Shown here piece after piece: positions 1-45,710 of a DNA stretch of 64,000 nt. Location: the sequence record KF055347; one strand, given 5' to 3'. Position 1 is the first letter of the stretch; every line of letters begins with the position of its first letter. Position numbers and translations under genes: made by a program. Below the pieces are notes generated by a model. It saw only the letters and a program-made list of their open reading frames with translations, did not search any database and had not been told where the DNA came from. This stretch comes from Escherichia phage JH2.

Positions 1-240
1 GCTCTTAGCAACTTGGGTATCTGCTTCCCACTGCCACTTAAGAATCTCAAGCATTACACCTGACATTGATGCTGGTACACTCTCAAAATCAAGACGTGAT
101 TGTTCAAAAGGGAACTCATCTTCTGACCAGTCTTGTGCTTTTTGTTGTTTATATAGTTCAAAGATTTTTGGGTAGTGTTTATTAAGTGAGTCAAACGTCT
201 TTCTCTCACCACCTAAAAAGATTGGGTGTTGGTTAATCAT
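1..240 (-). CDS. nrdB: ribonucleotide reductase small subunit NrdB, N-terminal part (gene continues beyond window start)
   Basis: Reverse-complement translation from ATG at 240 gives MINQHPIFLGGERKTFDSLNKHYPKIFELYKQQKAQDWSEDEFPF..., matching the N-terminal pattern of class Ia NrdB (E. coli / T4) from memory; start overlaps the upstream stop as ATGA. Confidence 0.7.
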   Translation of the reverse strand, partial: MINQHPIFLGGERKTFDSLNKHYPKIFELYKQQKAQDWSEDEFPFEQSRLDFESVPASMSGVMLEILKWQWEADTQVAKS

Positions 241-494
241 AGTGTGATTTCTCCTTTCTTTATCATCTCTAAGGCTTGTTTTCTGTCTAAAACTTCCCAA
301 TTTTCTTTGTTAAACATCTCATAAGGTCTTGCGTAGATTTTACCATCTGCTGTAGAGATGTAAGAGATACCAGCAACCCATGAGTCATCCTTTTGTTTTA
401 TCATCATATCTGTGCTACTCACATAGTACAGCGTTTTCCGAGGTTTATGGAGCAAATATATGGGCCACTCGTGATTTGCTATTAAGTCTTTCAT
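237..494 (-). CDS. hypothetical small protein between nrdA and nrdB
   Basis: ORF trimmed to internal Met (MKDLIANHEW...) preceded by GGAGAAACT; the longer 237..578 version would overlap nrdA. Confidence 0.45.
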   Translation of the reverse strand: MKDLIANHEWPIYLLHKPRKTLYYVSSTDMMIKQKDDSWVAGISYISTADGKIYARPYEMFNKENWEVLDRKQALEMIKKGEITL

Positions 495-549
495 AGTTTC
501 TCCAAAGTTAATTTTAGAGGGTCTTTTACGACCCTCATAGTTATTAAAA

Positions 550-2784
550 CTAAACACCACAACCCTCGCAATAAGCATCTTGCAGTGCAGATTTACCTAC
601 ACCAATGCGACTGTTAAGGTAGTACATGGTTTTCATACCTACTGAGTTGGCATAAATCATGTACTTCAAAGCTTGAGCCAATGATACCTTCTTAGACTTT
701 GCATAGTCAACATAGAAATCTGAAGAGATAGCTTGACCAGTGAACTTTTGAACAATTGCATAACAATCAATCAGGTCAAAGGTGTCAATATCCCAAGCAA
801 TTTCATAGACATACTTCAACTCTTCGTAATCTGGAACAATAAACAGTACGTTACCAGTTGCAGACTTTTTAGTTAAAATAAAGTCACGAATTGGGTACAA
901 ACCATTTGTTGTATTAGTTGCCAGTGAAGAACTCTCATTAGGCATGTAAGCTTCTAATACAGAGTTACGGATTCCACCATTTTCTTTAATACGTTGTGCT
1001 AAGTCATCCCAATCATAACGAAGTTTTGCATCATGCTTCTCATCAATCTTCCTGTTAGCTGTTTTCGGAGGAACCCAACCTTCAGGATACTTAGTGAACT
1101 GCATATACTCAGGTACACCACGTTCTTTAGCAAGTCTTAAAGAAGCTTCGTGTAAGTAGTAAGAGTGCATTTCAGCAAGCTCATGAAGCTTCGTCTTACC
1201 TGCTCTTGAAGAGTAGTTCACGTAGTTTTTCGCAAGGTAATGAGCCACATTTGTAAGGCCAATCCCAACAGAACGACGCTTCTGAACATGGTTGCGCATC
1301 GACGGATACGGATAATCCATAAGGTCGATAACGGAGTCAACCATTGCAAGAGCATAATAAGCAACGTCAGCGTATTCATCTTCTGAAATTCTCCCTGCAA
1401 CCAAACTAGCTAGGAAGCAAAGGGCTACCTCACCATCCTCTTTCACAGCATCATCTCTGTAAAGGTCTGTCTCTTTCTCAAAGCCGTACACTGGCAACAC
1501 AATTTCCATACAAAGATTTGACATCTTCAAAGGTTCTTTAAATGGTGTATGTGTGTTTGCATTATTCGTGAAGAATGGATACACACGACCTGTTGCATAA
1601 CGCTGCTGGATAAACAGTTTAGCAATTTCACGAGCCTTCACCCGTCTGTGCTTAACACCTGAATGTACTGCATGACCAACTGCCATAGCAAACTCATCAG
1701 CAGATGCTGTGTAGAACATGTCATAGAGTTTTGGCGCATCCTTGTAAGAGAATAGCAACCAGTCTGTATCATATTGAACACACTGCCAGAAATAATCATT
1801 TGTACCAAATGAGTAGTCCATCTCGTTAATACGTTTTGAAGGAACCGTTGTAGGGTGCTTCAAACGTAGTAAATCTTCAATCTGCGGGTCTAGAGCAGTG
1901 TAGAAGTTGTTAGCTGAACCACCACGACTCTTCTGTTTGTTTGCCTCTACAGATGAACGTACAAGCTTGTAATAAGGTAGTTTACCCATGTGCTCAATAG
2001 TATTTTGACGAATACCATCACCAATAGTGCGAGTCTCCATCAACATACCAATACCAGCTTGCTTTGTAGTCATATCATAAGCAACCTTTGCAGCAATACC
2101 TAGAGATTCAGCAGTATCATTTGCCTTAATCAAACAGCATGACGCATAACCTGATTTAGTAGCTCTTAAACCATTCAGATAAGGCGTAGGAGCGTTAATC
2201 TTCAGGTCAGATAGGTAAGTGTACAGCTTGATAACATCTTGCAGTCTACGGTGCTTTGGTTGCTTCTCGAAGGCTTTCATAGCCATACCCATAAACATAA
2301 ACTGCGGTGACTCAAAAAGTCTTCCCGTTTTAATATCACGGATACCATACTTGTCTCTGAACTGTTTCAGGACTGCATAGCCGTAAGAGATATCTTTTGA
2401 GTGTACGATGTAACCTTGCAGATATTCAAGTTCTTCCTGTGAATAATCCATCTTCTCCCAAAGTCCTGCTCTCTCCATATTTTTAACGAAGGTAACCAGC
2501 GTAGGAACCTTAGTAAATCCTCCAAAGGCTTCTTTGTAGATAATACCCAGAAGTAGCCGTCCAGCCATGTCTGAGTACTCTTGAGTTTGTTTATCAACAC
2601 AAACATCAATCATGGCTTGGTGCATCTCTTTTGTGGTACAACCCTCATAGACACGTTTCATAGCTTCCATAGTGACTTCTGACCAGATAATTCCACGCTT
2701 ATCTGCCCATGATGCCCACTTATTCAGTCTTTCTGGGTCAAAGCTTACTACTGTACCGTTTGATTTTTTAATTGTCTTAATCAT
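550..2784 (-). CDS. nrdA: ribonucleotide reductase large subunit NrdA (class Ia)
   Basis: 744 aa ORF with C-terminal CEGCGV redox tail; length and layout typical of NrdA; terminator hairpin upstream at 2801-2824. Confidence 0.88.
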   Translation of the reverse strand: MIKTIKKSNGTVVSFDPERLNKWASWADKRGIIWSEVTMEAMKRVYEGCTTKEMHQAMIDVCVDKQTQEYSDMAGRLLLGIIYKEAFGGFTKVPTLVTFVKNMERAGLWEKMDYSQEELEYLQGYIVHSKDISYGYAVLKQFRDKYGIRDIKTGRLFESPQFMFMGMAMKAFEKQPKHRRLQDVIKLYTYLSDLKINAPTPYLNGLRATKSGYASCCLIKANDTAESLGIAAKVAYDMTTKQAGIGMLMETRTIGDGIRQNTIEHMGKLPYYKLVRSSVEANKQKSRGGSANNFYTALDPQIEDLLRLKHPTTVPSKRINEMDYSFGTNDYFWQCVQYDTDWLLFSYKDAPKLYDMFYTASADEFAMAVGHAVHSGVKHRRVKAREIAKLFIQQRYATGRVYPFFTNNANTHTPFKEPLKMSNLCMEIVLPVYGFEKETDLYRDDAVKEDGEVALCFLASLVAGRISEDEYADVAYYALAMVDSVIDLMDYPYPSMRNHVQKRRSVGIGLTNVAHYLAKNYVNYSSRAGKTKLHELAEMHSYYLHEASLRLAKERGVPEYMQFTKYPEGWVPPKTANRKIDEKHDAKLRYDWDDLAQRIKENGGIRNSVLEAYMPNESSSLATNTTNGLYPIRDFILTKKSATGNVLFIVPDYEELKYVYEIAWDIDTFDLIDCYAIVQKFTGQAISSDFYVDYAKSKKVSLAQALKYMIYANSVGMKTMYYLNSRIGVGKSALQDAYCEGCGV

Positions 2785-3169: not shown

Positions 3170-3485
3170 GGTATTTCTCCAAGTTTCTTTTTAGATATAA
3201 CCAACCATAGTCAGTTCTTTCTACACCCATGAATAGTGGAGCCATCACAACTTTACCGAAAGTATTCCTGTGTTGGCAGATTTCAAAGGAATACTCTTTC
3301 TCGATATCAATCCCGTATTTGTACAGAACTGCTTTTAAAACTTGTTCATTATCCAGAAGTGTATCTGGAGTCTCACCATACTTCTCAAGTAACGGGTCAT
3401 ACATAAACACCGTCATAGAGATATTGTAGTTTGAGAAGTGGCTCTTCTGAGCCACAACCTCTTTATTAATGCTCTGTGAATCCAT
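3162..3485 (-). CDS. hypothetical protein
   Basis: ORF trimmed to ATG (MDSQS...) after AAGGGG. Confidence 0.45.
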   Translation of the reverse strand: MDSQSINKEVVAQKSHFSNYNISMTVFMYDPLLEKYGETPDTLLDNEQVLKAVLYKYGIDIEKEYSFEICQHRNTFGKVVMAPLFMGVERTDYGWLYLKRNLEKYRV

Positions 3486-4221
3486 TATAACCAACCCCTT
3501 TTAACCAGCACTTCAGGTTATTAGCATCATAATTCAGTTTCGGGTATGAGGTTACATGGAACTGCTCACCATCATAGTAGACAATATCTGCAATCCATAG
3601 TCCATTCTCTTTACAGAAATCTTTATCTGCTTTAGAGGTAATTGGATTAACTTCTACAAAACCATCTACACCCAAATCCTTTAAGCTACCTACAATACCT
3701 TTGCAGATAACGCATGTCTCAGATACTACCACAAAAAGTTCTTGGCTTTCAAGCTCTACAATGTATTCACCAAGCTGTACTTTAGGGAGATTTGACTGCT
3801 TCATAATCTTCCCATCGGCTGCACGAACAATTGCATACCATTCTTTACCATCAACTACTGACATTCTGATAACACACTCTTGACCAGTACGCTTCTCAAT
3901 ATCTGCAAGACGTTTCAAAGCTTCTTCATAGTCGTCTGTGTACTTCAGGTCATTATTATGGCAAACAGCTTTCATAGCACCGTTATGGTCATGTTGTGAC
4001 AGATAAATCAGACCATCAAGAACATATTGCAAATCTGCCTGAGCATCCAGTGTCTCAATGGGGTCTTTCTCTTCAATTGCTTTTACAAGCTCTTTTGCTT
4101 CTTCAAGCATACACAGGGACTGGGATTTTAAAGATTCCCAATACTCATCACTGTAAGGTTGCTTTTGAGTGTTTCCACAACGAAGATTCCAGTTTTTTAC
4201 TGCTTCTCTTGAGTTAAACAT
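3466..4221 (-). CDS. hypothetical protein (N-terminal region possibly MazG-like NTP pyrophosphohydrolase)
   Basis: 251 aa ORF with AAGGAG RBS; acidic helical N-terminal region EEAKELVKAIEEKDPIETLDAQADLQ resembles MazG-type motifs (weak). Confidence 0.45.
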   Translation of the reverse strand: MFNSREAVKNWNLRCGNTQKQPYSDEYWESLKSQSLCMLEEAKELVKAIEEKDPIETLDAQADLQYVLDGLIYLSQHDHNGAMKAVCHNNDLKYTDDYEEALKRLADIEKRTGQECVIRMSVVDGKEWYAIVRAADGKIMKQSNLPKVQLGEYIVELESQELFVVVSETCVICKGIVGSLKDLGVDGFVEVNPITSKADKDFCKENGLWIADIVYYDGEQFHVTSYPKLNYDANNLKCWLKGVGYNGFTEH

Positions 4222-4465: not shown

Positions 4466-4963
4466 TCAAGCACAGTTTGCTTTCATTACCTTATGGATTC
4501 TTCTTTCAGCATCTTCATAAGTTTCTTTAGTGATAAACTTAATTGCTGCAATGTTGGCATTGTAGAAGAGTCTGAGCTTAGAGTCAATCCTTTTTGTCAT
4601 TACATCGAATTTATGTTGGAGGTTTGCTTCACCATAAACTAGACCACCTTTCGTGTAGTAGGTTTGGATAATGTAAAAGTCAAAAAATTCTTTTCCAAAG
4701 CTCTCAATATCTTTTTTAACATACTCAGAAGAAGTCTCATAAGTCATCCAATCACTCTCCTTAGTGACTACCTTCTTCCGAGTCTTGCCAGCAACTTTTC
4801 TTTTGGTCACGCTATTAAACTGTTTCTTTCCTATATAATATTGTCCGGTTTTCTTACAGTATACTAAATAGACAAAACCAAAATGTTTAGTGGGGTCAAC
4901 TTCCCCACATAAAGATACCCAATGACCATAGGTAGGACAATTGCCAAATCCTTTAATCTTCAT
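4466..4963 (-). CDS. putative GIY-YIG family (homing-type) endonuclease
   Basis: N-terminal FGFVYLVYCKKTGQYYIGKK fits the GIY-x10-YIG module; free-standing ORF between replication genes. Confidence 0.5.
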   Translation of the reverse strand: MKIKGFGNCPTYGHWVSLCGEVDPTKHFGFVYLVYCKKTGQYYIGKKQFNSVTKRKVAGKTRKKVVTKESDWMTYETSSEYVKKDIESFGKEFFDFYIIQTYYTKGGLVYGEANLQHKFDVMTKRIDSKLRLFYNANIAAIKFITKETYEDAERRIHKVMKANCA

Positions 4964-5993
4964 TCATACACGGCTCCCAATTATATTTCTTAAAAGAGAA
5001 ATTATCTTTTGGATTTCTCTCTTGATATGCTACCCAGAAATGCTGCTCCATTAACTCTAATGGTGTTTTTGTAACAGTCTGTCCATCCCATGATACATAG
5101 GTATAAGACTCTTTTTTAGCATAGAGTTCATATATAGCGTCAAGACACTCTTTATAGGTCTCTTTACCATCTAAAGCATTCACCACAGCTACTTTTCCAG
5201 CACCTTTAAGGCCGAAGTAGTTGTCTGCATTATCTCCAGCAACAGCCTGATAACACAAGAATTTAAAACCTACACCAACTGTTTTTGCAGCTTTTGGTTT
5301 TGATTTGATAGGACAATCCCAGATATCACCAACATTATTATCAGCGATAAAAATTAGTGGTGATTTTTCATAAGTCATATCAATACAATAGGTTCCTTCA
5401 GCTTGTCGAAGGTCTTTGTCAATACTCATAAGAGCAGCTTTCTTACCCATCTTTTCAGCTTTAGCAATTACGATGGAATCGGCTTCGAAGCCTCCCTTTA
5501 AGAGCTTGAACTCTGGTCTGGATAAAAGATATTCACGACAAGCGACTAAGTGTGTTGGTGTGACAGCATCTTTACGGTTACCTTGATATTGGTGCTCAAG
5601 ACCTTTAATGTCTTTATGTTTATGCACACCCTTCTCTGTTAAGTAACCTACCCAAGTTCTTTCTTTACCAACAACCTTAAGCCATTCCTGAAGAACCTGC
5701 TGAGTAGCCATGATAGCTTCTTTTTCACTCTTAGCTTCTTTCCAAGTCTGCCTTTCCCATTCATCTTCATCAAATGTTAGACCAAGCTCTTCCACAAAGA
5801 TTCTCTGGTCTGCTAACCATCTTGCAGCATCTTTTGCATTATCAAATGGTTCAGATTCTTCTGCTGTGAGTTTATTGACGTATTTATATTTTGCTTTCTC
5901 AACTACACAAGCACCTTTATAGGCAATACTGTCAGAGTCAATAAAGACATGTGTAACTGAATCGGGAAGTTTTGTTAGTGTATACTTCTCCAT
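4953..5993 (-). CDS. 5'-3' exonuclease / flap endonuclease (RNase H-like, T5 D15 / T4 RNase H type)
   Basis: N-terminal VFIDSDSIAYKGA (FEN metal-site I) and VAGDNADNYFGLKGAGKVA (GDxSDN + H3TH-like) motifs; GGAGAG RBS. Confidence 0.6.
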   Translation of the reverse strand: MEKYTLTKLPDSVTHVFIDSDSIAYKGACVVEKAKYKYVNKLTAEESEPFDNAKDAARWLADQRIFVEELGLTFDEDEWERQTWKEAKSEKEAIMATQQVLQEWLKVVGKERTWVGYLTEKGVHKHKDIKGLEHQYQGNRKDAVTPTHLVACREYLLSRPEFKLLKGGFEADSIVIAKAEKMGKKAALMSIDKDLRQAEGTYCIDMTYEKSPLIFIADNNVGDIWDCPIKSKPKAAKTVGVGFKFLCYQAVAGDNADNYFGLKGAGKVAVVNALDGKETYKECLDAIYELYAKKESYTYVSWDGQTVTKTPLELMEQHFWVAYQERNPKDNFSFKKYNWEPCMNED

Positions 5994-6055: not shown

Positions 6056-6913
6056 TTAGTCTTCTGTATCGAAGTCTTCATCTTCTTCGTCATCTGGGTC
6101 TGGCAAGTCTTCATCGTCACCATCATCAGAATCATTAGAAGGTTTGTGGTCTTTTGCGTCTTCTTCAGTGATTTCACCGTTATCTTCAACACCATCAAGA
6201 CCAAGCATAGCCAGTTCGTCTTCATCCAGTTCAGGTTCACCGTTAGCACCGTTACCACCAGTGTAAGGTACAAGGGTATCAATGATAAACTGTTCCTGAA
6301 TAGGTTTTGTCAGAACATTGTTCTCAAAAGTGTAGAAGTGAGTAGAAAGAATCACACTACCAAAAGAACCGTTACCGACTGCAATATCTGGATGAATTAC
6401 ATCATAGTTCTTGTCATCTTCATGTTTGTCAGATGCTTGAGCTTTGATTTTCTTCATCGGCTGTTTAACAGCTACACGCTTACCATTTACTTCTTCAATC
6501 AGCATTACAGGGAATGACTGTTTAGCTGTCCACACAGCACCATCTTTATAAGCTGCTGCACGACTTACTTTCAAGATGTGGTAAGTGTCTGCTTCAAATG
6601 GTGGTTTGCAACCAAACTTCTCTTCGAAGTCATCTGCATCAACTGCTTCAGTAGTAACTTTATCCCAACCTTCTGGGTTTTTCTTAGACTTAGTAAACTC
6701 TTTAAACAGCTTGTTACCATCCTCTGCCAGAATTGAAACACTGTAGTTACAATCTTTTCCTGGGAATTTCTTATCAATGGATTTACCTTTTGCCGGACGT
6801 GGTGAAGTGTTCAGGTAATAAAACCAAACATCTTTCAGCAGGTAACGCAGAGTTTGACGTTCAGTACCATTGTACTTCTCTACCGGGGCTTTCATTTTAA
6901 CAACTTTAGACAT
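6056..6913 (-). CDS. single-stranded DNA-binding protein (T7 gp2.5-like)
   Basis: 285 aa with extremely acidic C-terminal tail ending ...DEEDEDFDTED (aromatic near terminus), as in gp2.5-type SSBs; sits next to a T7-like primase-helicase. Confidence 0.55.
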   Translation of the reverse strand: MSKVVKMKAPVEKYNGTERQTLRYLLKDVWFYYLNTSPRPAKGKSIDKKFPGKDCNYSVSILAEDGNKLFKEFTKSKKNPEGWDKVTTEAVDADDFEEKFGCKPPFEADTYHILKVSRAAAYKDGAVWTAKQSFPVMLIEEVNGKRVAVKQPMKKIKAQASDKHEDDKNYDVIHPDIAVGNGSFGSVILSTHFYTFENNVLTKPIQEQFIIDTLVPYTGGNGANGEPELDEDELAMLGLDGVEDNGEITEEDAKDHKPSNDSDDGDDEDLPDPDDEEDEDFDTED

Positions 6914-7135: not shown

Positions 7136-7413
7136 GATATTCTCCGATATACTTGATATTCAAACCCATTTTCTTTAATTATAAACAGCCAACTAATATT
7201 ATGCTGAGGCAGTGTAATGATGACTGTAATCGTGCTTTGGTAGAAATCTTCTTTTATCTCAACTTCTCCATTGCATTTCATGAGGAGCATTCTATAGAAC
7301 CTATCAACCTTTGTCAAACACTCTTCATGAAATTTATTTAAACTTTTTTCTTCAAAGAAGGGTGTGAACCCCTCTCTTTTATAACTGTCACTCAGTTTCA
7401 AATGGGCAGTCAT
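7132..7413 (-). CDS. hypothetical protein
   Basis: ORF trimmed to Met (MTAHLKLSD...) after GAGGA. Confidence 0.4.
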   Translation of the reverse strand: MTAHLKLSDSYKREGFTPFFEEKSLNKFHEECLTKVDRFYRMLLMKCNGEVEIKEDFYQSTITVIITLPQHNISWLFIIKENGFEYQVYRRIS

Positions 7414-9373
7414 CTGCATCCTCACTTAATACGGGTGGAATCGTTGAGCTTTGACGCTGTTCTTCAGTATAGACTTCACCAGTCTCACGGTCAAACACTT
7501 CATCCTCATAATGAGGTAAAGAGTCATCATAATGGTCTTCAGCTTCACCAATGCCAAACTGTTGGCGAATATTTTCTGCTGCGCCATCAATGTCAACACC
7601 ACATCCCGAAGCTTTGATGAGGCGTCCTGTGTCTGGATTGTACCAAGTATGACCAGCGATACCTGTTGACTTACCATGACGACGACACTTAGTTAACTTG
7701 ATTTTTGTCAAGTTTTTCTTAACAGGGTCTGGGTCAACCTTGTTACGCATTAACAGAATGTTATTCATAGAAATCTGGAAATACGCACCAGAACCCTTAA
7801 TATCCTCTTCAGAAATATCCCCACCTTCAGAGTTAGCTTTCTGACCACCTGCACTCTTACGAACGTGACAGACGTTCACCTGTGCATACTGGTAGCGTTT
7901 GCAACGACGCAATAGCTCAGACAAAACTTCCTCTTCATCCGTATCTGAGCGTGACAGAGCCAACGTGATAGGGTCAAGAATGATAATCTTACAGTCTAAA
8001 CTGTTAACAAGATAGTCAACAAACTCCAGCAAATTATCTTGGTCAATTGCCCCTTGATGGTCAACGATATGTATACGACGGCCTTTAGACAGTTCTGCGT
8101 GTGCTTCCTTCAATTCATCCCAATCTCGTTCATCATAAGGAATCTCAGAAATCTGCTTGCTCAGGTGAATTGCACAGAGCATCTCCATCAACTCTTCATA
8201 GGTATCTTCAACTGGAATTACACCAATATTGTAATCGGTTTCCTTCCAAGCAGTGTAAATCATTTCACGGGTATATGCTGATTTACCTACTGAAGATGGT
8301 GCTGCCAGAGTTGTAATCTCACCTAAACCATAACCACCATAAGTCAACCTGTTCAAATCCCCGAAAGATTCTGGGAAAGGAATCAATGGAATCTGACCAC
8401 GATTCTTCATTGCCTCAAAACCATCTGCGAAGTTCTTGATACCAGCAGGGCAGTAACGAGGTGCGTTGTAGATACGCTGTTTAAATCCTTCCAGAACTGT
8501 GTCTTTCTCTTTATAGAACTTTGTCCACCATTCGTTAAGGTCTTTTACGCCTTCTGGATACTGGAATAAACGAACCTTCTCAATAGGTAGTATGCCAGCC
8601 GCCTCTTTGGTAGCTTTAGCACCTGCTTCATCGTTATCAAAGCACAAGTAAATCTCATCAAATGATGTGATGTACTGATAGTTGTCTTTGATGGACTTAA
8701 TGTTTGCACCTGATGGAACAGATACGTGACAGTAATTCTTACGACGAGACTTATCTTTAATCGCCAAAGAAGTCATGTAGATAGCTGTCGCACATTCCAT
8801 CTCACCTTCCCAGATGAACAGTCGGTTCCCACCTTCTGGAGCAATCCATGAACCGAACATTGCCAGTTCACCTTTAATATCTCCAACACCACCTGAAAAG
8901 TCTTTTAACTTACCACGTAGGTGTTCTTTTGGATGGTCTTCTGGGTAACGGTGACGAACACGATAACCAACATGTTCTAGCTTGCCATCTTCATTACGCT
9001 TGTAAGTCGGATAGAAATGTGCATCAATTTCACCGTCACTATCAATATCAACCTTGATACCTAAACGTTCAAGGACTTTTGCAGGAATCTTCCTATCTTT
9101 CAAGTCCATTGCTTCTAGGTTTTCTTTTACATCGTCTAAATCCATTCCACGGAAAGTACGGTTTTTATTATCTGAACCAGTAGAATAAGTGCTCACGATT
9201 TGTCCTTTATCAAAATCCCACTCTGGGAAACCTTTGTTACAACTAAAGCAAGTCATCGAATAAGAATCATCGTCATGATGGTAGATTGAACCAGCATCTG
9301 ATGAACCACAACGTGGACATGCACAATGACCAATAAACTGACCAGCCTCTTTCAATTTACGACCTTTAGACAT
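7388..9373 (-). CDS. DNA primase-helicase (T7 gp4-like)
   Basis: N-terminal Cys4 zinc ribbon (CACPRCGSSD...CFSCNKG), TOPRIM-like middle, C-terminal DnaB-type helicase with Walker A GLGEITTLAAPSSVGKS. Confidence 0.85.
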   Translation of the reverse strand: MSKGRKLKEAGQFIGHCACPRCGSSDAGSIYHHDDDSYSMTCFSCNKGFPEWDFDKGQIVSTYSTGSDNKNRTFRGMDLDDVKENLEAMDLKDRKIPAKVLERLGIKVDIDSDGEIDAHFYPTYKRNEDGKLEHVGYRVRHRYPEDHPKEHLRGKLKDFSGGVGDIKGELAMFGSWIAPEGGNRLFIWEGEMECATAIYMTSLAIKDKSRRKNYCHVSVPSGANIKSIKDNYQYITSFDEIYLCFDNDEAGAKATKEAAGILPIEKVRLFQYPEGVKDLNEWWTKFYKEKDTVLEGFKQRIYNAPRYCPAGIKNFADGFEAMKNRGQIPLIPFPESFGDLNRLTYGGYGLGEITTLAAPSSVGKSAYTREMIYTAWKETDYNIGVIPVEDTYEELMEMLCAIHLSKQISEIPYDERDWDELKEAHAELSKGRRIHIVDHQGAIDQDNLLEFVDYLVNSLDCKIIILDPITLALSRSDTDEEEVLSELLRRCKRYQYAQVNVCHVRKSAGGQKANSEGGDISEEDIKGSGAYFQISMNNILLMRNKVDPDPVKKNLTKIKLTKCRRHGKSTGIAGHTWYNPDTGRLIKASGCGVDIDGAAENIRQQFGIGEAEDHYDDSLPHYEDEVFDRETGEVYTEEQRQSSTIPPVLSEDADDCPFETE

Positions 9374-9566
9374 TAGCACCTCTTCGTTGTAGTTCTGCCT
9401 TCAATCCGTTTTCAATCTTGTCCAGTTCATGAATTTCATCTGCAATCTCTTTCCTTCGTGATTCAACTCTCTTAAGACGTTCAATCATTACCTCATTGGA
9501 AAGAGATGAGAGTTCCACTAAACGATGGTCAATAACTTTAAAATTATCTTTTACTCTCATCTTCAT
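9366..9566 (-). CDS. hypothetical coiled-coil protein
   Basis: 66 aa ORF directly upstream of the primase-helicase gene. Confidence 0.4.
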   Translation of the reverse strand: MKMRVKDNFKVIDHRLVELSSLSNEVMIERLKRVESRRKEIADEIHELDKIENGLKAELQRRGANV

Positions 9567-10318: not shown

Positions 10319-10379
10319 TCTATTTCCCTTCATTACTAAAAAGCCCCCAACTAAGGAGGCTTGTAAGGTTTATAAAGAC

Positions 10380-17058: not shown

Positions 17059-17059
17059 A

Positions 17060-34441: not shown

Positions 34442-34840
34442 TTACTGAGAAGTTAGGCTTTTGAAAATGCTTGCTTCGAAAAAACTTCCGAAGTTTGCCT
34501 CCAGCGCAAATGCTAAGTAATCAATAAATTCACCATAGTTTGCTTGGAAGTATGTATCAATATTAAGTGGGAAGTCATCAACAGTTGCCCCTTGAAATAA
34601 CATGGTAGCCATTTCTTCAAGGTTAATTTCTTCAATTCTGTCAAAACAAGCTTCAACAAGTTCTTTAAATGGAACCATTGGAACATCTTTCTTACCTTTA
34701 TCAGTCAGACTTGATAGCATCTGTGCAAAAGTTGGAACAACAATTTTACCCAACTTCATAGACATCTTAATACCATCTCTTGCCCCAAGCAGAATGATAT
34801 TTACTTTCTTACCATTAATTACTCTAGATTCTGTTTTCAT
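34442..34840 (-). CDS. tail assembly chaperone
   Basis: 132 aa ORF between tail tube and tape measure; AAGGAAT RBS. Confidence 0.5.
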   Translation of the reverse strand: MKTESRVINGKKVNIILLGARDGIKMSMKLGKIVVPTFAQMLSSLTDKGKKDVPMVPFKELVEACFDRIEEINLEEMATMLFQGATVDDFPLNIDTYFQANYGEFIDYLAFALEANFGSFFEASIFKSLTSQ

Positions 34841-36728: not shown

Positions 36729-37328
36729 TTATTTTACCCCTTTGGAGTCTACATCTAGATGGATAGTATATTCTGGTGGCTCTTGTCCTTCTTCATAAAC
36801 TAACTCACCATCAACAATGACACGCTCAATAATACTTCCACGTTCATCTTTCAGGACTGAGTTTTTTACAAGAGTTACAACAAGAGGTGCAGAATTTTCG
36901 AAATCTGTATTGAGATAAGTGTAATCATTCGGGATTGCTCCAGTGTCTAGTACTGTAGCTCCTGTCTCTTCAAGAATTAAATCTCTGACTGAACTCATCT
37001 CTAATCGTTGTTTAAGCTCAAGCATAATACTGTGAGCACCTTTACCATTCACCGTAATCAATACAGGAATCTGAAAAGCAATTCTGTAGCAAACTACATC
37101 ATCCTCAACAAACTTATCAAGAACCCAACCATAAGGTGTTGCAGCATCTTGACAATATACGGTGATAAATGGCTGGTCAGGTTTTAAACCTTTGTCATTT
37201 GAGTTATCAGAAGGGTAAGCTCTAATTACATTTGGTCTATTATTTTTATCACGAGCTAGTCTGTGACCAATAACATCCACTAAGGTTCTAACTAGACCTT
37301 TTTCAAGTTCTGCTGTTTCTAACTGCAT
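36729..37328 (-). CDS. neck / tail completion protein
   Basis: 199 aa ORF between head and tail modules. Confidence 0.45.
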   Translation of the reverse strand: MQLETAELEKGLVRTLVDVIGHRLARDKNNRPNVIRAYPSDNSNDKGLKPDQPFITVYCQDAATPYGWVLDKFVEDDVVCYRIAFQIPVLITVNGKGAHSIMLELKQRLEMSSVRDLILEETGATVLDTGAIPNDYTYLNTDFENSAPLVVTLVKNSVLKDERGSIIERVIVDGELVYEEGQEPPEYTIHLDVDSKGVK

Positions 37329-38652: not shown

Positions 38653-39759
38653 TCAGCCACCTTGAGCGTCAGCGCGAACATCTACCAGCAACTGAGGGCG
38701 AGTGCAGTATGGCAGCATGTAAGAGTGAGCTTCGAAGTCAATACCTTCGTCACGGTCTTTTTCGTATTCAAATACGTACAGTTCCTGACCAAGTGTATTT
38801 GCATAACCCATCTTAGGACATGGGCCATATGCCACTTCGAAGATGTTGTTAGCTTCACCCAGCATAGATACGTTAGGGAAGGCATGACCAACACCAACAG
38901 TTGCTGCTACATCATCAATGCCCACCAGAGTGTGAACCTTACCACGCTTGTCTTTGAACTTACCGTTGTACTGGACAAACTTAACACCACCGTAGTAGAA
39001 GGTGTTCATGTGAGCCTGAACGCCGTCAGTACCACCAGTTCTCAGAGAACCAGTAATCTGTTGCCAAGCCAGCGGAGTCTGCTGTGCAAGATAAGCGTCA
39101 CGAATCTTAGGATGCTTAACCAGTTTGCTGAAGAATACACGGTCAACAACTACGTGAATTTCTTCGCCGTTGATTACAGTGCCAGTCTTAGCTTCGTCTT
39201 CCATGTGCATACGCAGTTCTTCGATAGAAGCGTCGATGTCAGCATTAGGGTTGGCAAGGTCGAAGTAAACAGTCTTCTTCTCAACGTCGAACTGCTTGTA
39301 CAGGTCAGCGTACAGAGTACCACGAGCATCAACAACTTTACCCTTCAGAGCTTGCATAAACAGGAACTCACGAGTAATATCGAACTTGGTACGAATCTTC
39401 ATCAGCTTCTTAGCACGTACTACAGCTTCAGTAGTCAGTTCGTTTGCAGTGCCTGGCTGACGTACACCCTGAATCTCATCAGGAGTAATGCTTTCAACTT
39501 CTTTGAAGTACATCATTGGGAAGCTGATTTGACGAACACGCTCAGGTGCGCTAGTCTCTGCTTTACGGCTATCACGGTCTACCGCATCAAGTAAGCTAAC
39601 ATCCCAATCAGTCAAGTCCATAAGGAAAGTGGTTTGGGTGATTGGTGCTGAACGGAACAGACCTAAGTTGGAAATATACCCATAAGTATTTGGGATAGAC
39701 TGGACTTCACCAGTCAGGTCAGCAAGGAAAAATCTGCTTTTTTCAGAATTAGTCAACAT
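38653..39759 (-). CDS. major capsid protein (lambda gpE-like)
   Basis: 368 aa; position after protease/scaffold and decoration genes; GGAGAA RBS; composition consistent with E-type capsid proteins. Confidence 0.8.
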   Translation of the reverse strand: MLTNSEKSRFFLADLTGEVQSIPNTYGYISNLGLFRSAPITQTTFLMDLTDWDVSLLDAVDRDSRKAETSAPERVRQISFPMMYFKEVESITPDEIQGVRQPGTANELTTEAVVRAKKLMKIRTKFDITREFLFMQALKGKVVDARGTLYADLYKQFDVEKKTVYFDLANPNADIDASIEELRMHMEDEAKTGTVINGEEIHVVVDRVFFSKLVKHPKIRDAYLAQQTPLAWQQITGSLRTGGTDGVQAHMNTFYYGGVKFVQYNGKFKDKRGKVHTLVGIDDVAATVGVGHAFPNVSMLGEANNIFEVAYGPCPKMGYANTLGQELYVFEYEKDRDEGIDFEAHSYMLPYCTRPQLLVDVRADAQGG

Positions 39760-39792: not shown

Positions 39793-40170
39793 TTACAGGC
39801 CAGTTGGTACGAAATCAATACCTTTAGCAGCCAGAGCTTTCTTGACTTCAGCAGCATCAACGCTTGATTCAAGAATTAGCAGGTCTTTTAGCTCTGCATC
39901 ACGGTGGATACCAACAACTTTCAACTGACCGTGGTAAGACAGTTGCAGGTCTGCATAAAAGTTAACGATACATACAGAATCAGCCTGAGATTCTTCTCCT
40001 GCTGCAACTTTAGAGCCATCTGCTTTCAGAACTTCACCTACACGGTATTCTGTAGAAGCTTTTGGAGTATACTCTTTACGAGAGTGGCCTGTTGGGGTAA
40101 CCTGTTCCCAAAGAATGATATCATTCAGAGGTTCTCTTTTACCTAGCTTAGTAAAACCTTCATATGCCAT
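39793..40170 (-). CDS. head decoration protein (gpD-like)
   Basis: 125 aa ORF between protease/scaffold and capsid genes, as in lambda C-D-E order. Confidence 0.5.
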   Translation of the reverse strand: MAYEGFTKLGKREPLNDIILWEQVTPTGHSRKEYTPKASTEYRVGEVLKADGSKVAAGEESQADSVCIVNFYADLQLSYHGQLKVVGIHRDAELKDLLILESSVDAAEVKKALAAKGIDFVPTGL

Positions 40171-40181: not shown

Positions 40182-41528
40182 TTATTTAATAAGAGATTTT
40201 AGAGCATTCTGGAGAGCCAGTTTGCGTTGTTCAGCGGTGTCTTCGGAAGCATTCTTAGCTGGTTCTTTTTCTTCTTCAACCAAATCAGCTTCGCCGTCAT
40301 TACCCACTTCTTCCATAGCGTTGGAATGTTCAAGAACAGCACCAGCAGTTTCTTTCAACTTGGTAATTTCTGATTCTTTTTCTTCCATTGCAGAAGCATG
40401 GGATGCGATAGTTTCATTAAGTTTCTGGTTAGCACCTTCCATAGCATTCATAAACAGAACACTCAGAGGGTTATCAAGACCAGCACCTAAAATAGTCGTT
40501 GCAGCTTCTTTTGCATCAAATCCAAAAGCTTCAGCAGAAGCAGAAATCTTATTAGTCAAATCTGACAAAGCAGCTTCCTGTTCTTTAGCTTTCATTTGAG
40601 AAACCTGAAGACGCAAAGCTTCTAGTTCTTGCTTTTCTTGTTCAGTCATTTCTTCACCTGAATTGTTAACGTTTAAACTTACAGGAGCCTCTTCAGAACC
40701 TTGTAAGTAATTTAAGAAATCATCTTGAGACATGATTGAGTTAATTAAACCAAGTTCAAGAGCTTCCTGAGCAGAATAAACATTCGCCTCAGTATTCTTT
40801 ACAGCTTCTTCAGAGAGATTACGAGATTCGGCTACAAAACCTGTAAAGGTTGCGTAGGTATCATTAATTCTCTTTTGAAGTCTTTCTTTGCTTTCTTCTG
40901 AAAGTGCTTGGAATGGTGAACCCATACCTTTAAACTCACCAGCTTTGATGACGTTAATTGTTACGCCATTCTTTTCAAATGCTTTAGTTAATTCCTGATG
41001 AACCATGATTACACCAATAGAACCAACATCTGCATCTGGTGATGCAATAATTTCTTCAGCAGAAGATGCAAGAGCATATGCAGCGGAACAAGCGAACTCA
41101 TCTACATAAGCAATAATTTTCTTTTGGCCTCTTGAAGCCATAATGTGACGTGCTAATTCAAAGCAACCTGAAGCTTCACCACCACCAGAATCAATATGCA
41201 GAACAATAGTCTTAATTGACTCATCTGCTAAAGCTTCGTCAAAGCCTCTACGCAAACCTTCATAAGAGCTTAATCCACCTGTACACATTGCATCAATGAA
41301 TGTCATACGATGAGTTAAACCACCCATAATAGGAATAATAGCAATGTCATCTTTTACTTTTAAAAGACTTCTTGCTTCACCTTTGGGTTTATCAAAGTTT
41401 ACTGCTGCTTGGACATCACCCAGCAATCTGTTATTCACATAAGTTGCTGCTGAGTGAGCTAATGATTCAGTGGCTAGTAAAGGTTGGTTGAACAATCTAT
41501 CAGCAAGTCTGAAGATATTCGAACTCAT
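40182..41528 (-). CDS. prohead protease (S49/ClpP-like) fused to scaffold-like coiled-coil domain
   Basis: S49-type core (IIAYVDEFACSAAYALAS ... SIGVIMVHQE) followed by long acidic coiled-coil C-terminus; lambda gpC-like. Confidence 0.75.
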   Translation of the reverse strand: MSSNIFRLADRLFNQPLLATESLAHSAATYVNNRLLGDVQAAVNFDKPKGEARSLLKVKDDIAIIPIMGGLTHRMTFIDAMCTGGLSSYEGLRRGFDEALADESIKTIVLHIDSGGGEASGCFELARHIMASRGQKKIIAYVDEFACSAAYALASSAEEIIASPDADVGSIGVIMVHQELTKAFEKNGVTINVIKAGEFKGMGSPFQALSEESKERLQKRINDTYATFTGFVAESRNLSEEAVKNTEANVYSAQEALELGLINSIMSQDDFLNYLQGSEEAPVSLNVNNSGEEMTEQEKQELEALRLQVSQMKAKEQEAALSDLTNKISASAEAFGFDAKEAATTILGAGLDNPLSVLFMNAMEGANQKLNETIASHASAMEEKESEITKLKETAGAVLEHSNAMEEVGNDGEADLVEEEKEPAKNASEDTAEQRKLALQNALKSLIK

Positions 41529-41872: not shown

Positions 41873-42372
41873 TAATTAAACCTTACTTTTTGTTTAAGGA
41901 CTGTTGAATGGTTACCAGATTCATCTACCACATTTACAATCATATCATATACTTTACCTTTGACAAGTACTTTGTAATCATTTTGTGAAAAAATGTATTC
42001 AAGTCTGTTTGTTTCTTTATTAACTGTCATTGGAGATTGAAATGCAGTGTCGAGGGTAATGAAAGCGGCTTCAATGCTGTTAACATTAATACGTTTATTC
42101 TCGCAGTTATATAACTTTACACCCAAAAGGCATGAACTGTCAAATGGAATTTTAACAATTTCACTACAATTTCCTGAAATAAACGGTTTTCCACTCATCG
42201 GTGCATCAAGTAACCTGCAAATAGTGAAAACGTCAGAGGTTCCACCGTCACTTACATAACCTGAAAGGCTGACCCTTGAGCCAGCCTCTACAGATAACTT
42301 GTCAGTAATGATAAGAACACCTCTATACGAATGCACTCGTGTAGCATTTGAAATAGAGATAACTTCAGCCAT
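41872..42372 (-). CDS. hypothetical head-module protein
   Basis: 166 aa ORF downstream of portal. Confidence 0.45.
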   Translation of the reverse strand: MAEVISISNATRVHSYRGVLIITDKLSVEAGSRVSLSGYVSDGGTSDVFTICRLLDAPMSGKPFISGNCSEIVKIPFDSSCLLGVKLYNCENKRINVNSIEAAFITLDTAFQSPMTVNKETNRLEYIFSQNDYKVLVKGKVYDMIVNVVDESGNHSTVLKQKVRFN

Positions 42373-43835
42373 TATTTATTTGCCTTATTTGCTGTGCTTG
42401 GGTCTTTCGCTGAAGGTGTCTTTGCAGTACCTTCTCCAGCGGTCTTATAACCATCTCCTGAACGGCTTTGGGTATTTGGAGAAAGCTTTTCAGATACTGG
42501 CTGAGACTCATCAGCAGGAGGAAGACCAATATGCTCTCTAAGCTTGTTAGATAGCTCTTTGTCAACTTCCAAAGCACCTACTGCAACAGTCTTCTGGATA
42601 TAAGAACCAATTACTTCAAGGTCTGGGGTTTCGATATCATCATATGTGATTTGTACATGTTCTTCATCGTCCCACATATTAAGAGCATAAGTCTGTGCAA
42701 CTAAATCACGGTTAATTACGTTCTTAATTTGCTTCAGCAGAATATCTACTGACATTGCTAATAAGCTTGTCTTAGAATCTGCAAGAGAGAATGAACCATA
42801 TTTTGATTGACCCATAGCAAGAACATCTGACATAAATGCCATCATAATCTGCTTGGAATATCTGTCAATGATAGAGCCTGTATCATATGCTTTAGCACCC
42901 TGTCTAGAAACTAATGAGAACTCGAAAATATCCTCTTTAGTATCTGGGTCGATATATCTAGGCCAGATTAAACCTGCTCTGTCGTTAGCAATCATATCAT
43001 TAACAACAGTTTTGCAGTATTGTACGAAAGCTTTCTTTTCAGGTTCTGCATTTTCATCCAGATAATCTGGTGGTAAACCAATCTTTGGCATACCTACTAA
43101 GTCTCTTGAAACACCAACAGCTTCATACTCTTCAATCTGTACTTTATACTTCCACGGTACATAAGCATTAAGCAATGGTGAACGACCTTCTGGGTTACCA
43201 TACTCATCGTCATACTTAAACAGCATGAACTTAGCTCGTGGGAGTTTTCTTGTTAGTGGTCTTTCTCCAAGATTAATTGCTCCAGCAATATGCGAAACAT
43301 TTCTTAGATTTTGTCTGACACCAGTAACTTTTCTAAAGTCTTCGTCAAAATACCATTTATCAAGTGTTGATTGGTTTCTGATTGGTAATTTAGCCCACCC
43401 AATTAGACCGTCATCAAATTTTGACTGGTACTTTCCTTTTTTACCCTGACGTTTCTTATAAACCTTTTCGTTAACACAGAACCCATAAGTGCAGAATGAC
43501 ATTACAGAGTTAATAAAATCTGCCCAATCATGCTCCATGTCATCCATTAAAGAATTAAAGAAGTCTGCTCTTTCAAGCATTTTAGGGTCTTGCTCTTTTC
43601 CCTTTGGAGGTACGAATCTCCAGTTGACTTTTCTGACAAACATCTTAATAATATTTACAGATGCTGCTACAGCAGGGTCACGCATCATTAATTGGAAAGT
43701 TTTAATACTTTCAGGGAACCTTAGTGCCTGACGAGGTTCTTCATAGATTCTACCATTCTTAACCTTCAGACCCAAAGAACCTACTTCACCCATTCTAAAT
43801 GGTGGTAAGCTTTCTTGTGTTTCTGTAATATCTGC
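42372..43835 (-). CDS. portal protein
   Basis: ~487 aa ORF directly downstream of TerL; start trimmed to MADITE... after GGTGAGAAGA. Confidence 0.7.
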   Translation of the reverse strand, partial: ADITETQESLPPFRMGEVGSLGLKVKNGRIYEEPRQALRFPESIKTFQLMMRDPAVAASVNIIKMFVRKVNWRFVPPKGKEQDPKMLERADFFNSLMDDMEHDWADFINSVMSFCTYGFCVNEKVYKKRQGKKGKYQSKFDDGLIGWAKLPIRNQSTLDKWYFDEDFRKVTGVRQNLRNVSHIAGAINLGERPLTRKLPRAKFMLFKYDDEYGNPEGRSPLLNAYVPWKYKVQIEEYEAVGVSRDLVGMPKIGLPPDYLDENAEPEKKAFVQYCKTVVNDMIANDRAGLIWPRYIDPDTKEDIFEFSLVSRQGAKAYDTGSIIDRYSKQIMMAFMSDVLAMGQSKYGSFSLADSKTSLLAMSVDILLKQIKNVINRDLVAQTYALNMWDDEEHVQITYDDIETPDLEVIGSYIQKTVAVGALEVDKELSNKLREHIGLPPADESQPVSEKLSPNTQSRSGDGYKTAGEGTAKTPSAKDPSTANKANK

Positions 43836-43854
43836 CATTCTTCTCACCTAGCTA

Positions 43855-45456
43855 TCAACGTCTAAGCCCCTCATATGGGTTTCCTCTCACTAAGTCTGTA
43901 TGAGCACCCATTGATGGTGGCTTGAATAATTTAACTTCGTTAAGACTGTTGAAAGCATCACTGGTAGCATCCACTTGGTCATCTTTAGTTTTACCATCAC
44001 CACAAAAACCTTCAAGTTCTTGGAAGTAAGCTTCGTTCCAACTACCTCTCAAGACTTTTACAAGTCCAGCTTCAGAAGCAGCAGAAAATCCCGCAAAGCG
44101 GGTAACTTTATCTTTATTTGTTGGTTTAGCTCTTGCGCGATAACCTTTCTCGGCAAGTTTCCTGATGAGGGATGTTGCATAGGATTTACCAGCAGCGCCT
44201 GGGTCTTGAGGGATAAAAATACCAGTTCGCTTACCGTCACTTTCAGCAGTCAAATTAATTTGTGTTTCGACTCCAGAGGGTCTATCTCTAAATCTTACTA
44301 CATCAATGATATAATAGCAACCGTCTTTTTTAGATTTACCCATCTTAACACCCGCTGTCCAGTCTGGGTTAGGGTTAATTTCAGATGGTAAAGTCGCTGC
44401 TAAGTCCCATGCTCTGACATCAAACACATCTTCTGGGAGTGAATCAACAATCTCACACCATTGTCTTTGCCAATAGTTTGAACCTTCTGCACGAGCCTTC
44501 CAGTTACCGAAACGAAGTCTTGCAACGTTTACAGGTGTGTTGTTTTCCAACTTACCACGATATTTAGGCTCTAAGAAGTCAAGAATTGGGTTATCATCAA
44601 TCGTACCAGAGATGAAGGTGTATGTCTGAGGAATCTCAAGAGGGAACATTTCAAGAATCTTGTCTCTTTCCCAATCAGAAACCATCACACCATCATTCAT
44701 AACATACCAACGAATACGACCACACTTCTCAGGGTCTGGGTAACCTTCTTCATCTAAGAAGGGTTCTACCCAATCATAAATGAAGTGGTCTCTATCTGGG
44801 TTCATAGAAATCTTCATGTATGAGTCACCTTCAGCACCGGAACGTAGACGGGTCTGTAGGTATGAAATCTGTGAAGCAGAGAAGTGTGTACCTTCGTCAA
44901 AGTAGATAGCTGAGTATTCAATACCCTGATGACCTTCAGCGTGCTTTTCAAGTTCTAGGTAGGTGAACTTAATAGTTGCCCCAGAAGGGAATGTGATAGT
45001 CATCTTCTGCTCGTGAGGAACCCCACCAAACTTACCAAATAGTTTCTTTGCAGCAGGCCATAAACCACCTTGTAACTGTGTTGTATTTCGACGGAAATAT
45101 ACAGCATTATAGTTAGGGTCTTCAATAAACCTTAAAGAGTCCATTAACAATGCAGCAGTTTTACCAGCACCAGCAGCACCACCATATAAAACCAAGTCAG
45201 CATTAGTATTTAAAAACACCTCTTGAGAACCCGGCTGAGGGGCTACATAGTTCTTATCAGTCATCAATTTGAAGATAAGTCTAACTTGGTCTGGTGTATA
45301 TCTTAATAAAGTCAGAATTTGAGTTGGAAGGAATTTAGAGGGGTCTTTACCGAATGATTTGATAATTTCTTTTACTTCATCAGAAAGCCCCAACTCTCCA
45401 GCTAGGACTTTCCTAACATCTTCCACTCGCTTCTGCTTAACAGCATTTAAGTCCAT
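43855..45456 (-). CDS. terminase large subunit
   Basis: Walker A LVLYGGAAGAGKTAAL, Walker B-like IYFDEGTHF, C-terminal RNase H-like nuclease region; start trimmed to MDLNAVK... after GGAGGTG. Confidence 0.88.
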   Translation of the reverse strand: MDLNAVKQKRVEDVRKVLAGELGLSDEVKEIIKSFGKDPSKFLPTQILTLLRYTPDQVRLIFKLMTDKNYVAPQPGSQEVFLNTNADLVLYGGAAGAGKTAALLMDSLRFIEDPNYNAVYFRRNTTQLQGGLWPAAKKLFGKFGGVPHEQKMTITFPSGATIKFTYLELEKHAEGHQGIEYSAIYFDEGTHFSASQISYLQTRLRSGAEGDSYMKISMNPDRDHFIYDWVEPFLDEEGYPDPEKCGRIRWYVMNDGVMVSDWERDKILEMFPLEIPQTYTFISGTIDDNPILDFLEPKYRGKLENNTPVNVARLRFGNWKARAEGSNYWQRQWCEIVDSLPEDVFDVRAWDLAATLPSEINPNPDWTAGVKMGKSKKDGCYYIIDVVRFRDRPSGVETQINLTAESDGKRTGIFIPQDPGAAGKSYATSLIRKLAEKGYRARAKPTNKDKVTRFAGFSAASEAGLVKVLRGSWNEAYFQELEGFCGDGKTKDDQVDATSDAFNSLNEVKLFKPPSMGAHTDLVRGNPYEGLRR

Positions 45457-45477
45457 TAAGCACCTCCGCAAATAGAA

Positions 45478-45678
45478 TTATTCAGAGTCTGTAGCAGTCT
45501 CTTCTTTCTTAACTTCGAACTTTGCATCAACAGCATCAAGAAGTGCATCCATAGAGGCTTCTTTAATATCAATACCTGTTGCTACAGATAATCTGTCTGC
45601 AATTGCCATGATAGTATTCTGCATAAACACTAACTTCTTGTTAGCTTCATAAAGTTCTTTATAAACGTTCTCGCTCAT
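45478..45678 (-). CDS. hypothetical protein upstream of terminase
   Basis: 66 aa ORF with GGAGAAAAC RBS; too small to call a small terminase subunit. Confidence 0.45.
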   Translation of the reverse strand: MSENVYKELYEANKKLVFMQNTIMAIADRLSVATGIDIKEASMDALLDAVDAKFEVKKEETATDSE

Positions 45679-45710
45679 TATGTTTTCTCCAAATAATTAA
45701 TTATGTTTCC

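Follow-up and report, generated by a model that had tools for sequence, protein, structure and literature searches.

Escherichia phage JH2 as a Felix O1-type myovirus: lineage-wide mosaic modules and a probable group I intron in the DNA polymerase gene

Here we have analysed a 64,000-nt stretch of Escherichia phage JH2 (sequence record KF055347), which we call the window; it covers 64 kb of a ~87-kb genome, of which ~23 kb lie outside. With a probability of about 0.95, the window is a piece of a virulent Felix O1-type myovirus of the genus Felixounavirus, subfamily Ounavirinae, in which positions 1-45700 hold the standard early and late modules of the genus and the mosaic make-up is ancient and lineage-wide. 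The case for a Felix O1-type virulent myovirus is built on nucleotide identity, gene order that agrees open reading frame (ORF) for ORF, and even GC content. The original prediction, made from the sequence alone, had described a T7-like replication set joined to lambda-like head genes and a contractile tail; all three are indeed present, the head being lambda-like in part, nearly all of the predicted genes are confirmed, and the arrangement is not particular to this genome, as it occurs in more than 200 Felixounavirus records. Within these familiar modules, the window probably holds two under-described features: a mobile intron in motif B of the polymerase gene, and an unannotated single-stranded DNA-binding protein (SSB) whose tail mirrors that of the helicase, implying T7-style tail-mediated coupling.

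The kinship of the window was established by megablast of positions 1-22000 and 22000-46000 against 50,697 phage records. The first segment matches 278 records, 197 of which cover at least 80% of the query, and the second matches 306, with 237 at that coverage. Nucleotide identity to FelixO1, BPS15Q2, HK3, pEP20 and other Felixounavirus is 93-96.5% over 94-99% of 1-46 kb, and the right-hand 13 kb (51-64 kb) are ~91% identical to the same group; the genus criterion of the International Committee on Taxonomy of Viruses is ~70% nucleotide identity. Both early and late modules are collinear, ORF by ORF, with the RefSeq annotations of FelixO1 and BPS15Q2 (NC_005282, NC_031939), and the whole region is alike in gene order, at 93-96% nucleotide identity, in Felix O1 and other Felixounavirus (BPS15Q2, HK3, pEP20 and Bas63/JohannRWettstein). 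Furthermore, virion chains solved from closely related phages (9ncf, 9c2d, 9mt4, 9c39) are near-identical to the capsid protein, both decoration proteins, the sheath and the tube of the window. One point counts the other way: the best whole-segment identities are ~95-96.5%, and the exact genome is thus absent from the phage collection searched. We found no evidence that contradicts the assignment to Felixounavirus.

Side by side in this region stand protein families of T7, lambda, Mu and T4 type, as might be expected of a recent recombinant, or of an assembly chimera, in which a T7-like replication block, a lambda-like head and a myovirus tail had been joined. We give this explanation a negligible probability. 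The arrangement is identical in more than 200 independently sequenced genomes, and gp4-like helicases are known in other myovirus groups as well, namely Pakpunavirus, phAPEC8-type phages and the Rheinheimera Barba phages. GC content is even across the window (0.35-0.44), with no jump at module boundaries, and GC skew goes with the direction of transcription, with switches close to 11.7 kb and 22 kb. A recent joint is excluded because T7 and lambda proteins share only ~20-33% identity with those of the window, or none that is detectable, and because composition is uniform between modules; read from the sequence, the mosaic is an ancient, lineage-wide sharing of protein families rather than a recent T7-like/lambda-like joint.

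The mosaic architecture is also already known, having been published in 2010 and 2025. In Felix O1, the polymerase was placed nearest to podovirus polymerases, including that of T7, and the primase-helicase nearest to its counterparts in T7-like phages; also reported were a 5' exonuclease, an ATP ligase and an Nrd/Td/Frd/dNMP kinase set, together with a portal of Mu type and an S49 protease (Whichard et al., 2010, PMC3185647). More recently, a near-atomic atlas of the Bas63 virion discussed structural mosaicism explicitly (Hodgkinson-Bean et al., 2025, PMC12609058). In the window, two divergent early operons meeting at ~11.7 kb together encode, by homology, a compact T7-style replisome, an ATP ligase and a deoxynucleoside triphosphate (dNTP) supply set, and a leftward late operon from 45.5 to 22.6 kb encodes terminase, portal, protease, decoration protein, capsid, connectors, tail, baseplate and fibres. 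The replication features, with lengths in amino acids (aa), are as follows.

4953-5993, minus strand: T7 gp6-like 5'-3' exonuclease, 346 aa (PHROG 107 exonuclease, 3.3e-63)
6056-6913, minus strand: predicted gp2.5-family SSB, 285 aa, with an acidic C-terminal tail (profile and predicted fold)
7388-9379, minus strand: T7 gp4-like bifunctional primase-helicase, 663 aa (Pfam Toprim_2 and DnaB_C; PHROG 239, 3.9e-185)
11853-14016, plus strand: DNA polymerase exon 1 (family A; 3'-5' exonuclease and N-terminal part of the polymerase domain), by comparison with FelixO1 gp96
14017-14818, plus strand: probable group I intron, 802 nt, in polymerase motif B; absent from the FelixO1 gene
14125-14607, plus strand: intron-encoded endonuclease, 160 aa, Endonuclease VII/HNH-type (Pfam Endonuclease_7, 1.1e-19)
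14819-15375, plus strand: DNA polymerase exon 2, from alignment of the spliced product
17024-18163, plus strand: ATP-dependent DNA ligase (Pfam DNA_ligase_A_M and DNA_ligase_OB_2, the adenylation and OB domains)

The T7 affinity foreseen for this set differs from protein to protein. It is clearest for the primase-helicase, which carries a CxxC...CxxC zinc motif close to its N-terminus, combines Toprim_2 with DnaB_C, and has T7 gp4 structures as its top solved relatives (PDB 6n7i, E=1.3e-40). The polymerase is likewise gp5-like: T7 gp5 chains are the only PDB matches of its first ORF (11844-14057; ~1e-4), and the spliced product scores 57.9 bits against Pfam DNA_pol_A (cutoff 34.3) and aligns by BLASTP with gp5 at 9e-13 over a stretch that starts in the fingers, includes motif B and ends at the last residue, with the exonuclease domain at 0.008. 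For the exonuclease, which PHROG 107 also places as such, BLASTP to T7 gp6 gives E=3e-6 with 21% identity over 221 aa; we regard this evidence as moderate, since the Pfam scan of 4953-5993 gives no match. The ligase is where the prediction of a T7-type enzyme goes too far: an ATP-dependent ligase is present, without specific T7 affinity, as BLASTP against T7 gp1.3 is not significant (E=1.4) and the closest solved structures are 6imj (deposited as 'DNA ligase') and the PBCV-1 ligase. Eukaryote-like affinities have been noted for the Felix O1 ligase (PMC3185647).

Taken together, the window shares with the T7 replisome a primase-helicase of gp4 type, a family-A polymerase whose collinearity with gp5 extends through motif B as far as the C-terminus, a gp2.5-fold SSB with an acidic, Phe-containing tail, and a gp6-like exonuclease, which together with the ligase would process Okazaki fragments. 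It differs in that identities are only ~20-25%, the genes follow another order than in T7 and are spread over two divergent operons, no relationship between ligase and gp1.3 can be detected, and the polymerase is 906 aa long against 704 aa in T7. A phage RNA polymerase was not found in those ORFs of the window that were scanned; for Felix O1, too, its absence has been reported (PMC3185647).

The interruption of the polymerase gene is, in our reading, very probably a functional group I intron. FelixO1 gp96 is a single 906-aa ORF, and its homologue in the window is broken between 14016 and 14819. Exon 1 shares 91.5% nucleotide identity with gp96 positions 1-2162, and conceptual splicing gives a polymerase of 906 aa with no internal stop that is 92% identical to gp96: ...ATTTATGCGT joined to TATTGTTCGGG... 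gives IYALLFGAGDEKFAKT, which is polymerase motif B, and the splice junction restores IYALLFGAGDEKF exactly. The borders of the 802-nt insert carry group I hallmarks. A U precedes the 5' splice site, a G at 14818 ends the intron, and the exon sequence 14011-14016 (ATGCGT) can pair with intron positions 14022-14027 (GCGCAT), forming a P1 of 6 bp in which the splice site carries a U.G pair. A 12-bp P6 stem (14089-14100 with 14623-14634) encloses the endonuclease ORF, which has an AAGGAG ribosome-binding site 7 nt before its ATG. At the gathering threshold, an Rfam search of the whole window returned tRNAs only and no intron; the window copy scores 24.6 bits against Intron_gpI (E=5e-4; gathering score 50), a low value because the ORF interrupts P6. 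ORF-less orthologues in phages Mushroom and HMD-P8 (L006 1460-1764 and L007 1489-1721), 97-99% identical to the window intron in the core, score 62.2-62.3 bits and so pass that threshold. The polymerase mRNA would need splicing of this intron to give the 906-aa enzyme.

In the public databases the gene looks different, and this invites another explanation, that the polymerase is truly two polypeptides (737 aa and 184 aa) split by a free-standing endonuclease gene. Two polymerase ORFs do exist, the second with a TTG start at 14821; GenBank and RefSeq records list 'DNA polymerase (x2)', with two coding sequences annotated for the intron-bearing gene, and the genome note on Mushroom describes two polymerase genes with a 383-bp spacer (PMC4392139). 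We nevertheless hold a two-polypeptide enzyme to be unlikely, given the hallmarks of the insert, the motif B and collinear reading frame recovered by its removal, and the Intron_gpI scores of the ORF-less copies (62 against 50 bits); moreover, the split lies within catalytic motif B, and the first ORF extends 13 codons into the insert up to a stop. In the collection, 95 phage records carry this probable intron, 39 of them with the full ORF-containing form, and the remainder (~56), in the rows sampled, match two core pieces only and are apparently ORF-less. As for Felixounavirus polymerase introns in the literature, we found only the 'two genes' of Mushroom (PMC4392139) and an unlocated mention of 'two introns' (PMC9951933).

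Within the genus, the polymerase gene diverges to an unusual degree at its 3' end. Compared with FelixO1, Mushroom and HMD-P8 (window 13417-15375 against L004, L006 and L007), identity is 81-86% in the final 600 nt of exon 1 and 73-86% in exon 2, as against 91.5% for exon 1 as a whole. Co-conversion linked to the intron was considered as a cause and found no support: exon 2 is 73% identical to FelixO1, and HMD-P8, although intron-bearing, likewise reaches no more than 78% in this part. This end of the gene is therefore simply variable in the genus.

Bacillus phage SPO1 has a group I intron with a homing endonuclease ORF in its DNA polymerase gene. Staphylococcus phage K, too, has a polymerase-gene group I intron with a homing endonuclease ORF (cited in PMC3185647). 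The window intron resembles both in its position in a conserved polymerase motif, in the optional endonuclease ORF in a peripheral loop and in its patchy occurrence among close relatives; it differs in residing in a Gram-negative, enterobacterial myovirus, in an ORF with an Endonuclease VII domain, and in a host gene annotated publicly as two polymerase genes. In the Pseudomonas phage PaoP5 (Pakpunavirus; L009 4035-7018), a T7-like primase-helicase likewise accompanies a DNA polymerase whose annotation is divided ('part II'), and myoviruses of this kind may commonly have family-A polymerase genes that are interrupted.

The second under-described feature is the SSB, a 285-aa protein (PHROG 3877) labelled 'hypothetical protein' in all public records checked. 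Its C-terminus, ...DDEEDEDFDTED (tail ...EDEDFDTED), is acidic as the original prediction had stated, and we accept the protein as a member of the gp2.5 family on the strength of profile and predicted fold. Several observations weigh against this. A Pfam scan and a PDB sequence search gave no direct match; direct BLASTP to gp2.5 is weak and falls in a biased region (E=0.005); hhalign to gp2.5 with a shallow, Felix-only alignment gives 26%; and the nine best remote relatives found below carry no Pfam label. Because the direct tests were negative or marginal, and because a first AlphaFold model was unusable, with a predicted local distance difference test (pLDDT) score of 49, a deeper alignment was sought by searching a profile of Felix-type SSB sequences only (A1) against a library of 1.84 billion representatives. 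At a library-wide E of 1e-3 or below, this retrieved 63 proteins, mostly of 200-240 aa. Forty-nine sequences, the SSB of the window and 48 of these proteins, were scanned with Pfam, yielding six assignments to SBB_T7 and four to Enc34_ssDNA-bd; since the nine strongest relatives are unlabelled, the link to SBB_T7/Enc34 comes via weaker members, and support for the family is transitive. With the enlarged profile, hhalign to T7 gp2.5 reaches a probability of 94.4% (E=9e-8), around the conserved GNGS strand. An AlphaFold2 model from the enlarged alignment has a pLDDT of 83.6, and above 90 for residues 1-220. Its best nine Foldseek matches in PDB are all gp2.5-family structures (4klk, 5odj/k/l, 1je5, 4jg2; E 7e-5 to 9e-3), from the gp2.5, Enc34 or DUF2815 families, with modest TM-scores of 0.40-0.54.

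The C-terminal tails of helicase and SSB compare as follows.

Window, minus strand: helicase ...DADDCPFETE (7388-7417); SSB ...EDEDFDTED (6056-6085)
Erwinia phage Rouille (Kolesnikvirus; L008 2115-4991): helicase ...DDDDIPFRTE; SSB ...DDDDDVPFKTE
T7: gp4 ...NDTDF; gp2.5 ...EDGDF

An acidic run with F-x-T-E ends both proteins, and the ending changes in parallel in Rouille, where both read PF[RK]TE; in the A1 alignment, the SSB residues F281 and T283 do not vary. In T7, biochemistry has established that the acidic, Phe-terminated tails of gp2.5 and gp4 bind the polymerase. By analogy, the tails of the SSB and helicase in the window phage would dock on the polymerase as they do in T7.

The late operon contains the head genes, to which we add a decoration gene encoded ~9 kb from the head module.

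38653-39759, minus strand: major capsid protein, Phage_cap_E family, HK97 fold (Pfam Phage_cap_E, 8e-79; PDB 9ncf_A, 1.5e-246)
39793-40170, minus strand: head decoration protein, 125 aa (PDB 9ncf_J 'Head stabilization/decoration protein', 3.4e-73; PHROG 4146)
40182-41528, minus strand: S49 head-maturation protease (Pfam Peptidase_S49, 5.6e-39)
42372-43847, minus strand: portal, Mu gp29 type (Pfam Portal_Mu, PF06074, 5.2e-26)
43855-45471, minus strand: large terminase, T4-type (Pfam Terminase_6N, 8.7e-43, and Terminase_6C, 4.4e-33)
54647-55279, plus strand: second (hexamer-centre, Hoc-like) decoration protein, 210 aa, with one Ig-like domain (PDB 9ncf_S, 1.7e-212; Pfam Ig_3 and Ig_2)

The prediction of a lambda-like head survives for the gene order, for protease and capsid (S49 and Phage_cap_E) and, with less certainty, for the decoration protein (9ncf_J), and fails for portal and terminase. 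The order portal, S49 protease, decoration, capsid is that of lambda B-C/Nu3-D-E, and Phage_cap_E is named for lambda gpE; the S49 protease matches lambda gpC by BLASTP at 33% identity (E=1.5e-38), and a scaffold role may be proposed for its unassigned C-terminal ~150 aa. By contrast, BLASTP of portal against gpB and of terminase against gpA gave no significant similarity, and capsid against gpE and decoration protein against gpD gave no significant pairwise match. Since the portal belongs to Portal_Mu and the terminase to Terminase_6N/6C, 'lambda-like' correctly describes, by these family assignments, how the genes are ordered and to which families protease and capsid belong, and does not fit the portal or the packaging enzyme. 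Two extra genes (the collar and whisker region) also lie between portal and protease, unlike in lambda.

Comparison with the Bas63 virion extends this picture. The decoration protein, which has no Pfam match and no sequence similarity to lambda gpD, corresponds in Bas63 to a trimeric beta-tulip like that of gpD with a divergent alpha domain (PMC12609058). RefSeq and PHROGs call it 'tail protease', a mislabel that has already been pointed out (PMC12609058). Congeners differ from lambda in having a T=9 capsid, as determined for Bas63, and, from a gene at another site, an additional Hoc-like decoration protein (PMC12609058); this protein has 210 aa and one Ig domain in the window, compared with 460 aa and four Ig domains in Bas63 (9ncf_S; PMC12609058).

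Downstream of the head genes, the late operon holds genes for a contractile tail.

22605-26166, minus strand: two tail-fibre genes, of 781 aa (T4 gp37-type repeats; Pfam gp37_trimer, 4.7e-76) and 389 aa (Gp10_C, 1.5e-18)
26471-31957, minus strand: baseplate genes (Baseplate_J-like wedge, spike, hub, Pam3 gp18-like plug, Dit-like), by Pfam and FelixO1 annotation
31957-34200, minus strand: tape measure (Pfam TMP_3, 2.5e-16)
34442-34840, minus strand: tail assembly chaperone (Pfam Phage_TAC_15, 7.3e-19)
34914-35360, minus strand: tail tube (PDB 9mt4_P 'Tube protein', 4e-96; Pfam KPP10_Orf10)
35376-36728, minus strand: contractile tail sheath (PHROG 205, 2.2e-124; PDB 9mt4_Q, 2.4e-285; Pfam DUF3383)
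36729-37328, minus strand: tail terminator (Pfam Phage_tail_terminator_9, 5.4e-13)

Sheath and tube, along with tape measure, chaperone, tail terminator and baseplate proteins, are thus confirmed by Pfam or PHROG matches and, for the first two, by the solved chains 9mt4_Q and 9mt4_P; the sheath additionally matches chains deposited as tail sheath (9cb9) and as Pam3 sheath (8hdr). Rather than falling into other families, the sheath, the decoration protein and the E-like capsid protein correspond to chains 9mt4_Q, 9ncf_J and 9ncf_A, respectively.

The remaining early genes include a nucleotide-metabolism set.

1-240, minus strand: nrdB, N-terminal 80 codons, cut by the window edge (100% identical to FelixO1 NrdB residues 1-80)
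550-2784, minus strand: nrdA, class I ribonucleotide reductase large subunit (Pfam Ribonuc_red_lgC, 3.9e-91; Ribonuc_red_lgN, 2.7e-14)
3466-4221, minus strand: MazG-like/PRA-PH pyrophosphohydrolase (Pfam PRA-PH, 8.3e-6; MazG-like in BPS15Q2 and FelixO1)
4466-4963, minus strand: free-standing GIY-YIG (SegE-like) homing endonuclease (Pfam SegE_GIY-YIG, 7.5e-28)
9575-10333, minus strand: deoxynucleotide monophosphate kinase (Pfam DNMK, 1.4e-22)
20477-21022, plus strand: dihydrofolate reductase (Pfam DHFR_1, 1.3e-22)
21024-21923, plus strand: thymidylate synthase (Pfam Thymidylat_synt, 3.8e-73)

NrdAB, ThyA, DHFR, deoxynucleotide monophosphate kinase and the MazG-like enzyme constitute a T4/T5-style dNTP supply set. 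All five foreseen members are present, four by Pfam and nrdB as an 80-codon fragment at the window edge; the fragment alone has no match in a Pfam scan and was identified via FelixO1 NrdB, which at full length matches Ribonuc_red_sm at 1.9e-34. In RefSeq, FelixO1 and BPS15Q2 carry the GIY-YIG orthologue under the label 'NAD synthetase', and in both phages an HNH ORF that is missing in the window adjoins it. More broadly, the homing-endonuclease insertions set the window apart from FelixO1: the window has the polymerase intron and the GIY-YIG ORF as such insertions, whereas FelixO1 has an uninterrupted polymerase gene and HNH ORFs after the polymerase gene and after the exonuclease gene. A 270-aa, apparently helical protein at 10380-11192 (minus strand) is labelled 'minor tail protein' (PHROG 4251, RefSeq); the label is doubtful because it lacks Pfam support and because the gene lies in the replication operon.

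A virulent lifestyle, as originally predicted, fits these data. We scanned with Pfam all 45 ORFs of at least 150 aa that are not nested in a larger opposite-strand ORF (the nested 12090-12554, 26727-27251 and 38662-39594 being left out), and no integrase, recombinase or excisionase domain was found among them. The accompanying claim that no repressor module is seen needs qualification, as one Cro/C1-type helix-turn-helix (HTH) protein is present:

19000-19329, plus strand: Cro/C1-type HTH protein, transcriptional regulator (Pfam HTH_3, 5.2e-11)

Were this protein a lysogeny repressor, the element might be temperate or a prophage remnant. This is highly improbable: besides the lack of integration domains in the scanned ORFs, every nucleotide match is to an isolated phage from a genus known to be virulent, integrase is reported absent in the SPJ41 paper, and the HTH gene sits within an early operon rather than in a divergent immunity cassette.

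To the right of the late operon lies the large tRNA array, which had been foreseen within 1-45700 and in fact begins ~200 nt past that end.

45901-50987, minus strand: tRNA array with interspersed DUF7217 and DUF7338 ORFs (26 tRNAs by ARAGORN, 24 by Rfam)
46075-46872 and 47261-47818, minus strand: the DUF7217 and DUF7338 ORFs inside the array, by domain matches

Two tRNAs, Tyr (50346-50433) and Met (50658-50734), fall below the Rfam gathering threshold. Directly beside the array, a 471-aa protein at 51153-52568 (minus strand) combines DUF2828, DUF7788 and VWA_2. Farther on, between convergent gene blocks, positions 60509-62203 form 1.7 kb without an ORF of at least 45 aa, at a GC content of ~0.35; the region is conserved in 255 Felixounavirus records at 60-95% (mostly 80-95%) and has no Rfam match. 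YTTAACA repeats, often 11 nt apart, are concentrated here, 18 of the 70 copies in the window lying within 60743-61740, with inverted copies at 61712-61740. This repeat region could be an origin, an iteron array or a regulatory region.

As stated, the mosaic finding matters little, as it recovers from raw sequence what had been published on the genes of the Felix O1 group, whose phages are widely used in Salmonella typing and biocontrol. The practical gain lies in annotation: a decoration protein is called 'tail protease', an SSB 'hypothetical protein' and a GIY-YIG endonuclease 'NAD synthetase', and the polymerase is entered as two genes. Modest leads are provided by the intron, by the tail motif common to SSB and helicase, and by the repeat region devoid of ORFs; the tail motif, in particular, may offer a simple, testable handle on T7-type replisome wiring in a myovirus.

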